A DNA stretch of 43,102 nucleotides, from assembly GCA_002782865.1 (NCBI GenBank), contig PFJC01000004.1, forward strand, positions 1-43,102, given 5' to 3'. Within the stretch, counting starts at the first letter, position 1, and each line of letters opens with the position of its first letter. Both the position numbers and the translations under genes were made by a program. The DNA comes from Candidatus Uhrbacteria bacterium CG_4_10_14_3_um_filter_41_21. Lineage in GTDB: Bacteria; Patescibacteriota; Patescibacteriia; UBA9934. The notes below the pieces were generated by a model, which was not told the DNA's origin, searched no databases, and saw nothing but the letters and a program-made list of their open reading frames with translations. This document shows, in pieces, positions 18,112-19,217 of this stretch.

Positions 18112-18121
18112 AATTAATTGA

Positions 18122-18150
18122 TTGACAAAAAAGCGACTTCTTGCTAGTGT
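18122..18150 (+). promoter_or_regulatory. sigma70-like promoter at the left edge of the high-GC island
   Basis: Consensus TTGACA (18122-18127), 17 nt spacer, TAGTGT (18145-18150). GGAG at 18192-18195 lies 5 nt before the ATG at 18201. Confidence 0.5.
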
Positions 18151-18200
18151 GAGGGGTCGTTTTTCGTTTTGGGGGACGACAATCTCAACCTGGAGCGAAG

Positions 18201-18506
18201 ATGTCTGACAAGATCCGTGTGCGTGTGAAGGCCAACACCCATCGCAACCAACCCGTGGTCGTTGAAGTCGAGATCAGCGATTTCAATGATCCCCGACTCA
18301 CCGAACTCGTTCAGGGCTCGAAGGTCAAGATCGAGATCGAGATCGAAGAGCCGACGGAGGCGCAGGCGTCGCTTCTCGGGCGGCTCATGTTCTTGAGCTC
18401 ACCGGATGCCGTGGCCGACATTGGCAAGTCGGTTCCGCCCTCGACGCGCAAGACCGAGGATTTCCCGGTCGAAGTCATGATCCTGAACCTGCGCAAGCCG
18501 GTTTAA
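18201..18506 (+). CDS. upstream part of an RNA polymerase alpha-CTD-like gene (unknown N-terminal domain), ends at in-frame TAA
   Basis: GC-rich codon usage. The C-terminal residues ILNLRKPV align with the start of the alpha-CTD motif. Same reading frame as 18522-18758. Confidence 0.5.
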   Translation: MSDKIRVRVKANTHRNQPVVVEVEISDFNDPRLTELVQGSKVKIEIEIEEPTEAQASLLGRLMFLSSPDAVADIGKSVPPSTRKTEDFPVEVMILNLRKPV

Positions 18507-18521
18507 GTCCTCGAGCCCTCG

Positions 18522-18758
18522 GTGCGTGCTGCAAACAGAATCGAGGATCATTTTGATGGCATGCGAATCGACGAGATTCCGCTCTGGAGGGTCTGCGAGC
18601 TGGGCGAAGACGAGATTCTCAAGCTGAAGAACTTCGGTCGGTCGAGTTTCAAGCAAACGAAAGAGGCTCTCGACGAGCTCGGCCTCCGTCTCGGCATGAG
18701 GGATTTCATCGAGGAGCACAAGATCGAGATCCTTCGTCAGGAAACCGACCCCGACTGA
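18522..18758 (+). CDS. RNA polymerase alpha-subunit C-terminal-domain (HhH)-like segment
   Basis: VRAANRIED...LKLKNFGRSSFKQTKEALDELGLRLGM compared with E. coli RpoA CTD VRSANCLKAE...[28 protein letters not shown] (from memory). Only a GTG start and no RBS are available. Confidence 0.55.
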   Translation: MRAANRIEDHFDGMRIDEIPLWRVCELGEDEILKLKNFGRSSFKQTKEALDELGLRLGMRDFIEEHKIEILRQETDPD

Positions 18759-18760
18759 TC

Positions 18761-18824
18761 GACGCCAACGAGGCGTCATCGTCTGCCCGATCACTGTTAA
18801 CAGGTGGTCGGGTATTTGTTTTGT
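18761..18824 (+). terminator. two hairpins and a T-tract closing the island gene
   Basis: GACGCC-AACGA-GGCGTC (18761-18777). CCCGATCACTG-TTAA-CAGGTGGTCGGG (18786-18812) is followed by TATTTGTTTTG. Confidence 0.55.
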
Positions 18825-18829
18825 CCGAG

Positions 18830-18847
18830 CACATGAACCGCCCCTAC
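18830..18847. repeat. half unit of the CCCCTAC palindromic family
   Basis: CACATGAACCGCCCCTAC. Confidence 0.6.
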
Positions 18848-19055
18848 GATTTCCTCTCCCCATTCAGAGGAGGCCGATAGGCCGACGAAGAATCTCTTTG
18901 TGTCTCCACCCCGGACCTGCCTGCCCGTCCGAAGCCCGAAGGGCGAAGGCGGGTTCCGGGGCCCAGCGACTTTCGTTAGGCACCGGCACTACGGCCGGTG
19001 TGGAAATGAGGGAGGGAACGATTGTGAGTAAAGTGAAGCAATCTCAATTCTTAAC

Positions 19056-19081
19056 GGGCGGACACATGGGTCCGCCCCTAC
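19056..19081. repeat. full unit of the CCCCTAC palindromic family
   Basis: GGGCGGAC-ACATGG-GTCCGCCC followed by CTAC. Confidence 0.8.
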
Positions 19082-19111
19082 GGTAATCAATTTCGTACAT
19101 CCAATTCGATT

Positions 19112-19135
19112 GGACACGGCATGCCGTGTCCCTAC
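19112..19135. repeat. variant unit of the CCCCTAC palindromic family
   Basis: GGACACGGCATGCCGTGTCC is a perfect 20-nt palindrome, followed by CTAC. Confidence 0.7.
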
Positions 19136-19136
19136 G

Positions 19137-19164
19137 TCCAACATCCAACATCCAACTTCCAACA
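19137..19164 (+). repeat. tandem heptamer array TCCAAC(A/T) x4 directly upstream of leuS
   Basis: TCCAACA TCCAACA TCCAACT TCCAACA, then a degenerate TCCTATC. Confidence 0.85.
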
Positions 19165-19217
19165 TCCTATCCCCAAACATTGCACCCAACCCAAATTTCA
19201 GCTAATATTCATTTACT

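Follow-up and report, generated by a model that had tools for sequence, protein, structure and literature searches.

The bacteria of the Candidate Phyla Radiation (CPR) have tiny, streamlined genomes, and the regulation of their transcription is barely known. Some small proteins are annotated by NCBI as 'DNA-directed RNA polymerase subunit alpha C-terminal domain-containing protein', i.e., they share with the alpha subunit RpoA its C-terminal domain (alphaCTD); no experimental characterisation of such proteins was found in the literature. As for short GC-rich repeats, the repetitive extragenic palindromes (REPs) tagged with GTAG are located mostly downstream of genes and occasionally inside them, and it has been suggested that they represent miniature transposons (Di Nocera et al. 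2013, PMC3733652). Both kinds of element meet in the stretch of DNA analysed here, the 43,102 nucleotides (hereinafter the window) of contig PFJC01000004.1 (assembly GCA_002782865.1) from Candidatus Uhrbacteria bacterium CG_4_10_14_3_um_filter_41_21. A GC-rich island, located between the GDH and rhodanese genes on one side and leuS on the other, harbors a gene for an alphaCTD-like protein, referred to as mini-alpha, followed by REP-like units. This island is probably a small, lineage-specific cassette of a single gene, acquired horizontally by one Candidatus Uhrbacteria species and decaying in the strain represented by the window.

The island stands out by its composition. Between positions 18150 and 19135 the GC content is 0.570, versus 0.405 for the remaining window; background windows of the same length have a mean of 0.404 (standard deviation 0.027, maximum 0.482), which gives the island z = 6.2. 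In 200-nt sliding windows the GC content moves from about 0.40-0.47 to 0.55-0.62 across 18200-19100 and then drops back, and the 1-kb window 18001-19000 (0.573) is the highest peak of the whole 43 kb. The GC content at third codon positions (GC3) is 0.77 for the open reading frame (ORF) at 18201-18506 and 0.71 for that at 18522-18758, versus 0.24-0.49 in 32 other measured ORFs. For the whole mini-alpha frame, GC1, GC2 and GC3 are 0.62, 0.34 and 0.75, respectively, so that the excess sits in the third codon positions. A preliminary description of this DNA, made from its letters, had reported a GC-rich island with G/C-ending codons and had taken it as suggestive of foreign DNA; both the island and its deviation from the host were confirmed by the composition and codon-position checks.

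The relatives were compared by means of 80 leuS-anchored loci retrieved from GTDB species representatives. The closest ones belong to Candidatus Uhrbacteria, with a best-segment identity of 73-77%, and the related Uhrbacteria share the conserved order IF2-Trx-TrxR-GDH-(slot)-LeuS-ComEC-MBL-NDK. The slot is empty, GDH directly adjoining leuS, in L080, L068 and L012, and is filled with unrelated genes in L034, L039, L041, L042, L045, L047 and L066. As an example, a 299-aa ORF (PP2C-like by eye) is located there in L041, a rhodanese gene and a 294-aa ORF (methyltransferase-like by eye) in L047, two ORFs resembling, by eye, Fpg and Nudix proteins in L066, and a different GC-rich stretch of 815 bp in L034. 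Minus-strand ORFs of 274-294 aa can also be seen in the slot of L039 (5037-5894), L042 (4222-5106) and L045 (5044-5868). A homologue of either half of mini-alpha was found in none of the 80 loci. Since the site is empty or occupied by other cargo in the relatives, the island is not a conserved core locus; its absence from related genomes in which the flanking order is kept, put forward in the preliminary description as something to be checked, was thus established. The same description had asked whether rhodanese and leuS are contiguous elsewhere; the rhodanese gene itself is not conserved here and is found in the slot of only one of the 80 loci (L047). The interval between GDH and leuS is, to judge from this comparison, a site of recurrent gene turnover which has repeatedly taken up DNA.

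The coding part of the island had been described as one frame split into two ORFs. The two ORFs do lie in the same reading frame, but they do not represent two genes. The NCBIfam rpoA models span the stop in the conceptual fusion (residues 94-167, E = 9e-9), and the only close match to the fused protein is a 185-aa protein (100% coverage, 98% identity) with a Ser at the position of the TAA; in a word-indexed homology search with the fused protein, the matches were confined to the same population. The 90% cluster contains several intact 185-aa alleles (among them P0217, P0221, P0001, P0223 and P0224), the first of which corresponds to NCBI PIZ54409.1 and PJB84353.1, both named Candidatus Uhrbacteria bacterium, together with gene-caller fragments of the broken allele (101, 78, 65 and 63 aa). 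Within the gene, the window is identical to the P0217 haplotype except for the C to A change at 18505. The exact 101-aa product of the first ORF was found on 16 contigs and intact alleles on at least 23 and at least 24 further contigs; the contigs read for P0217, P0221 and P0001 represent the same locus. The two ORFs are parts of a single 185-aa gene, which carries a nonsense mutation specific to this strain, and the premature stop falls, in the family alignment, exactly at the conserved start of the alphaCTD domain.

The other alleles carry a synonymous change at L95, the pair P106R and A110V, or the pair L128Y and V131D. Altogether, mini-alpha shows one synonymous versus five amino-acid or stop changes, all embedded in codons 95-131, and seven variable columns in 558 nt (1.25 per 100), versus 0.25-0.30 per 100 in the GDH and rhodanese genes. 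This pattern of variation would point to relaxed constraint, diversifying selection being a less likely alternative. A Ser in place of the DNA-contact residue K298 and a Pfam score below the threshold point the same way. The C to A change would truncate the product, leaving at most a 101-aa stub that ends before the alphaCTD in the window's strain. Two possible restart codons exist after the TAA, GTG 18522 (78 aa) and ATG 18561 (65 aa), and only the stub is expected because no Shine-Dalgarno-like motif was seen, by eye, before either of them. The window presumably carries a null or hypomorphic, decaying allele, and the coexistence of intact and broken alleles implies that, in some conditions at least, the bacteria can do without the gene.

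An antisense ORF of 154 aa (18399-18863, minus strand) overlaps mini-alpha, and several public assemblies list it as a gene; it lacks homologues, shows a less marked codon-position GC pattern than the sense frame and is most likely a spurious by-product of the GC-rich sequence. The public annotation of the locus is inconsistent, with products of 101, 78, 65 or 185 aa, or the 154-aa antisense ORF, and the locus is best treated as one gene with a pseudogene allele.

The mini-alpha protein consists of two domains joined by a linker, an N-terminal one of about 65 residues and a C-terminal one with the alphaCTD fold. An exhaustive HMMER search of 1.84 billion representatives returned 99 matches, most of which cover only the C-terminal 70 residues and correspond to the alphaCTD of RpoA and other proteins. 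Alignments over both halves were obtained with proteins of 161-171 aa, namely P0002 (40% identity), P0007, P0014, P0020, P0023 and P0049, and a later profile search added P0100 (155 aa) to this family. The distant members are 28-40% identical to mini-alpha, the nearest being at 40%. The preliminary description had spoken of a transcription-related gene, which is in agreement with the match of the family profile to an alphaCTD in PDB (9zum_A, E = 3e-25) and with the Foldseek results, where the matched structures were 8y5t_A2, the E. coli alphaCTD (template modelling score 0.91, root-mean-square deviation 1.5 A, 33-37% identity over about 72 residues), and 3n4m_C (0.85). The AlphaFold model, built on a 7-sequence alignment, has a predicted local distance difference test score of about 80-86 in the C-terminal domain and of 48-68 in the N-terminal one, whose fold was left uninterpreted at this low confidence. 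In the predicted structure, the helix-hairpin-helix fold is superposable on solved alphaCTD structures, and the C-terminal domain is, by this prediction, an alphaCTD. The equivalents of R265, N268, G296 and S299 are kept, and that of K298 is replaced by Ser148; these five positions (E. coli numbering, placement checked on the indexed sequence) are the DNA-contact residues of the '265 determinant', so that four of the five are kept. Six residues are inserted after helix 1 of the domain, and the PF03118 score of mini-alpha (17.6-18.9 bits) is below the gathering threshold of 23.8, which the relatives P0100, P0101 and P0021 pass with 61-80 bits; the protein of the window's species is the most divergent member of the family.

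Mini-alpha does not reach the RpoA equivalog cut-offs, scoring 34.6 bits versus 302 for NF003513 and 23.2 versus 227.8 for TIGR02027, and the alpha N-terminal domains PF01193 and PF01000 have no Pfam match in residues 1-95. The N-terminal domain has no family match in Pfam, NCBIfam, PHROGs or PADLOC, its profile compared with that of RpoA gave a probability of 0.1%, and a profile search with this domain only returned no significant match. The final strand and helix of the domain at the N-terminus of alpha had been considered as a possible counterpart; neither the profile comparison nor the search with the N-terminal domain supports this likeness. Further family members were not disclosed either by the scan of IMG/VR (a single alphaCTD-only match) or by tblastn against INPHARED phages and PLSDB plasmids (no match). 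A metagenome scan with the back-translated pattern W..LKxKNFGRK retrieved mostly ordinary 339-aa RpoA and no new members, because the Trp taken as family-specific is common in RpoA; a literature search on stand-alone alphaCTD proteins and on islands in Uhrbacteria retrieved nothing relevant. From the fold, the intact protein would bind DNA or transcription factors through the alphaCTD surface, and such a free alphaCTD would modulate transcription, acting as an accessory factor or competing with the RNA polymerase alpha subunit, while the N-terminal domain may mediate self-association or targeting. On this basis we infer that intact mini-alpha might act as an accessory or competing transcription modulator.

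The preliminary description had presented the island as a self-contained module with a near-consensus promoter, a GGAG before the ATG at 18201 and hairpins with a T-tract, and all of these signals, with one gene and its leader between them, were located (Table 1). The GGAG motif ends 5 nt before the ATG. The promoter is absent from the list of a generic strict promoter scan, since its -10 hexamer matches the consensus at only three of six positions; it is supported by a TTGACA or TTGACT that recurs about 80-97 nt ahead of the start codon in each of the six family members whose upstream sequence is long enough. A hairpin likewise opens the leaders of the other family members, and in those examined the stop is followed by a terminator-like hairpin with a T-tract (both read by eye in the sequences). 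These predicted signals show mini-alpha as a monocistronic unit endowed with a putative promoter, leader, ribosome-binding site and terminator of its own.

Table 1. Features of the GC-rich island (coordinates refer to the window).
Feature	Position	Strand	Basis
Putative sigma-70-type promoter: TTGACA (18122-18127), 17-nt spacer, TG-n-TAGTGT (extended -10, 18145-18150)	18122-18150	+	read in sequence
5' leader (about 50 nt) with GTCGT...ACGAC hairpin and GGAG ribosome-binding site (18192-18195)	18151-18200	+	read in sequence
First 101 codons of mini-alpha: N-terminal domain and linker, ending at the premature TAA	18201-18506	+	ORF list; aligns with the N-terminal halves of P0002, P0007, P0020, P0023 and P0049
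Premature stop TAA, TCA (Ser102) in intact alleles	18504-18506	+	allele comparison; single C to A at 18505
Remainder of the mini-alpha frame: alphaCTD-like helix-hairpin-helix domain; true stop TGA (18756-18758)	18507-18758	+	rpoA models, profile, Foldseek
Small hairpin (18761-18777), then intrinsic terminator (stem 18784-18814 and T-tract)	18761-18824	+	terminator scan, folding
Truncated GTAG-tagged REP-like unit, loop and 3' arm only: CACATGAACCGCCCCTAC	18830-18848	+	compared with the full unit 19056-19081
GC-rich hairpins 18909-18961 and 18981-19000	18909-19000	+	minimum-free-energy and centroid folds
Complete REP-like unit GGGCGGAC-ACATGG-GTCCGCCC-CTAC, GTAG tag on the minus strand	19056-19081	+	repeat comparison
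REP-like unit GGACACGG-CATG-CCGTGTCC-CTAC	19112-19135	+	repeat comparison
Heptamer microsatellite (TCCAACA)x4.4	19137-19167	+	allele comparison

The non-coding part which follows the terminator is of a different nature. The motif CCCCTAC occurs nine times in the window versus 1.55 expected, and three units of this family are located in the island, at 18838-18848, 19056-19081 and 19112-19135. They had been described as three units of one palindrome family; all three are present, but they are not exact copies, the first being truncated and the last reading TCCCTAC. Other REP-like palindromes lie elsewhere in the window, at 2223-2284, 11988-12015, 12768-12774, 15449-15465, 27121-27127, 32266-32295 and 42772-42795, and the same family is found in another Uhrbacteria genome (L089). 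These units are short GC-rich palindromes with an unpaired GTAG tag, present in several copies, as in the definition of GTAG-tagged REPs (PMC3733652). Both GC-rich hairpins previously noticed in this region (18909-18961 and 18981-19000) are found in the minimum-free-energy fold; the preliminary description had included them in what it suggested to be foreign or repeat-mobilised DNA. The 3' third of the island is most simply read as a host REP cluster, for the most part, plus a variable heptamer repeat, GC-rich by nature and not by origin; as host-type palindromes and a microsatellite make up most of it, a foreign origin need not be assumed. Folding of the 459-nt non-coding stretch gives z = -4.7, which is explained by the REP hairpins without a regulatory RNA. 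A blastn search of the non-coding part and the leader against all the collected loci disclosed no similar DNA. At the heptamer array, a strain-level replacement has exchanged about 18 nt for about 59 nt, including CCGGCGAAGCCGGGCCAGGCTCCGCCTGGCA, with a net gain of 41 bp.

Some observations on the repeats of the window can be added. Among the REP-like palindromes, one is embedded in the truB frame (11988-12015), another in the 3' end of the M50 peptidase ORF, one lies just past the secY stop, and a pair is located upstream of nusB. A heptamer array (CATCCAA)x4.3, nearly the same as that at 19137-19167, is located in frame inside leuS (19921-19950), where it encodes SSNIQHSTSN in a variable surface loop 6 aa longer than that of the closest relative; other CPR LeuS proteins have, at the same spot, inserts 17-23 aa longer than that of the window and repeat-derived in appearance. 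Two heptamer arrays stand back to back, (TCTTAGC)x4.9 at 26414-26447 and (CTAACAG)x4.3 at 26454-26483, in the gap between the EPSP-synthase and M50 peptidase genes.

The genomic context was readable for seven members of the mini-alpha family, the window included, all in genomes of 40-50% GC; two of them are named Uhrbacteria, and one context is on a 1.09-Mb contig. The family gene is a clear GC3 outlier in four of the seven: the window (0.75 versus at most 0.49 in its neighbours), L089 (0.78 versus at most 0.60), L242 (0.88 versus at most 0.66) and L228 (0.68 versus 0.52 in the neighbour). It is a mild one in L239 (0.71 versus 0.52 in the neighbour) and L088 (0.70 versus 0.42-0.70), and none in L240 (0.55 versus 0.65 in the neighbour). 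Because the GC3-rich signature recurs in genomes of this composition, composition alone is a weaker proof of recent transfer, and the recurrence is a warning against its use as such. It is possible that the gene has been transferred repeatedly, from CPR lineages richer in GC and not yet sampled or from mobile elements, or that the signature is due to GC-biased gene conversion or to selection on the transcript. In L089 (3125-6814, GCA_030688135.1), the two hypothetical genes flanking P0100 have a GC3 of 0.60, versus 0.27-0.35 in the other neighbours, which suggests that this genome holds a larger, multi-gene GC-rich island around P0100.

The abrupt change of composition might be the mark of an assembly chimera or of a contaminating fragment from a GC-rich organism, all the more so as 19115-19217 is assembled variably, with scaffold gaps in two assemblies (L002 and L091). 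This is, however, the only unstable spot, and the trouble is restricted to the microsatellite/indel site. More than 60 contigs from many samples were read (JGI, ENA, NCBI, among which GCA_002793535.1 and GCA_002789535.1, and Logan), all with the island at the locus; the 23 contigs with the exact rhodanese protein all carry it with the same spacing, and the 15 population contigs compared match the window at 99.7-99.99% identity over 2-19 kb. Dozens of contigs, 2-44 kb long and derived from different samples and assembly sources, show the same two junctions, and different alleles of the island's interior are found between the same flanks. Since every contig read carries the island at the same locus, a chimera, which the preliminary description had asked to exclude, is so extremely unlikely that it can be considered effectively excluded. 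The split of the frame might in turn be functional, with two separate small proteins or a programmed readthrough of the TAA, given that at least 16 contigs from several samples retain the nonsense allele and that a GTG lies 16 nt past the stop. This is very unlikely, as sister alleles have a Ser at that codon, every family member is a single polypeptide, neither restart codon is preceded by a visible Shine-Dalgarno-like motif, and the stop interrupts the alphaCTD domain at its conserved start. Nor is there more than a minimal chance that the GC-rich non-coding part is a structured regulatory RNA (a T-box or another leader) for leuS: its position directly upstream of an aminoacyl-tRNA synthetase gene and its strong fold would fit, but no Rfam family was matched at the gathering threshold or with E up to 10, weak chance-level hits apart, none of the relatives has this region conserved in front of leuS, and the structure is accounted for by independent REP hairpins.

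The remaining explanations concern the origin of the gene. It might be native, i.e., vertically inherited and patchily retained in Uhrbacteria/CPR, with a GC3 intrinsic to it and maintained, for instance, through GC-biased gene conversion at a locus prone to recombination or through mRNA selection. The recurrence of the GC3 excess in genomes of 40-50% GC, the two hosts named Uhrbacteria, the fact that no member was seen in a GC-rich genome and the concentration of polymorphism in mini-alpha all speak for it. Nevertheless, none of the 80 related leuS loci carries mini-alpha and the slot cargo differs by lineage, the family members lie in unrelated genomic contexts, they are only 28-40% identical in a family extremely sparse among 1.84 billion representatives, and the 5' leader and terminator are GC-rich too; we regard a native gene as rather unlikely. 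A mobilisation in trans, by a REP-associated or IS200/IS605-type tyrosine transposase acting on the GTAG-tagged hairpins, would make the island the cargo of a non-autonomous element. REP-like units do lie directly downstream of the gene, the first of them truncated at the terminator, and GTAG REPs are proposed miniature transposons (PMC3733652). Moreover, in L089, L088 and L242 a stretch of 8.5-10.5 kb contains a single CCCCTAC/GTAGGGG motif, at a distance of 48-185 nt from the family gene; when the motifs are pooled, the 10% of sequence near the gene holds 5 of 12 (p = 0.004, a post hoc value uncorrected for the intergenic preference of REPs). Against it, the left boundary has no hairpin, no tyrosine transposase was found among the window ORFs tested for families, the sequences compared contain no second copy of the island DNA, and all units have the same orientation on one side only, so that such an origin appears distinctly improbable. 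The wider idea that mini-alpha genes, each with a strong promoter, a hairpin leader and a terminator of its own, form an undescribed small mobile cassette circulating in Uhrbacteria/CPR, possibly through GTAG-tagged hairpins, with a free alphaCTD that reprograms the host's transcription by competing with RNA polymerase alpha for UP-like DNA or activators, is unlikely as well; if true, it would explain why the GC-rich codon signature is kept in AT-rich hosts.

Acquisition of a single-gene cassette, which we consider the probable origin, is itself confronted with several points that weigh against it. The searches disclosed neither a donor nor a close foreign homologue, and the nearest relative is 40% identical; the family is too small for a tree, with no close homologue outside the population and no match in the phage and plasmid collections. 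An integrase or transposase was not found among the 16 window ORFs tested against Pfam, there is no tRNA gene near the island, and the repeat search disclosed no direct or inverted repeats bounding it, so that the 'repeat-mobilised' DNA of the preliminary description was not borne out. The empty-site allele is absent from the population contigs read, and the nearest island-free species, at about 70-77% protein identity, is too distant to fix the boundaries and date of the insertion. One transfer from a GC-rich donor would account for the window, but not for the recurrence of the GC3 excess in four to six of the seven members. According to the preferred reading, a single transcription unit (a strong promoter of its own, a leader of about 50 nt with a hairpin, a ribosome-binding site, one 185-aa gene and an intrinsic terminator) would have been acquired and would have entered the variable slot between the GDH/rhodanese genes and leuS. 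The locus would then illustrate, cleanly and on a small scale, how a gene is gained and afterwards decays, with intact and nonsense alleles in one natural population, and a strain-variable, self-expressed alphaCTD protein would represent a concrete candidate accessory regulator for CPR bacteria.

Two further genes of the window deserve mention. The N6/N4 DNA methylase gene (440-1252, minus strand) has, with 33% GC, the lowest GC content among the measured genes and may also have been acquired, in this case with a composition deviating in the other direction. Between the EF-G and EF-Tu genes in the str operon region, at 30540-30914, lies an ORF that resembles Phd/YefM antitoxins (Pfam, E = 1e-7).

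When compared with known systems, mini-alpha shares with the alphaCTD of RpoA (PF03118) the helix-hairpin-helix fold and the equivalents of R265, N268, G296 and S299, and differs from it by the Ser in place of K298, the 6-residue insertion and the sub-threshold PF03118 score. Unlike RpoA, it has no alpha N-terminal dimerisation/assembly domain, is 185 aa long versus about 330, is encoded outside the ribosomal/rpoA operon and scores about one-tenth of the curated cut-offs. NF005841 (PRK07758), a 95-aa stand-alone alphaCTD-like protein, is likewise small and has an alphaCTD-like domain, but it has no N-terminal domain and the match is of 13-15 bits versus a cut-off of 115. The closest counterparts are the NCBI alphaCTD domain-containing proteins, such as MDP2631173.1 from Candidatus Uhrbacteria (P0100), which have the same two-domain layout in 155-171 aa and likewise have their own promoter and terminator and a GC3-rich gene in a low-GC genome; P0100 itself is about 32% identical to mini-alpha and has a different genomic location. 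Mini-alpha belongs to these loosely defined alphaCTD domain-containing proteins and is not an RpoA. The downstream units resemble the GTAG-tagged REPs and bacterial interspersed mosaic elements (PMC3733652) in their GC-rich palindromes of 24-28 nt, unpaired GTAG/CTAC tag, placement downstream of genes and multiple copies; they differ in that the three island units have the same orientation and do not alternate, and no REP-associated tyrosine transposase was found among the window ORFs tested for families. With horizontally acquired genomic islets, lastly, the island shares an atypical composition, the presence in a single lineage and a slot with variable cargo; here there is no integrase, tRNA target or flanking repeat, and just one gene, of about 0.7 kb, is carried. 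No new kind of system is required: the island behaves as an ordinary small acquired islet.

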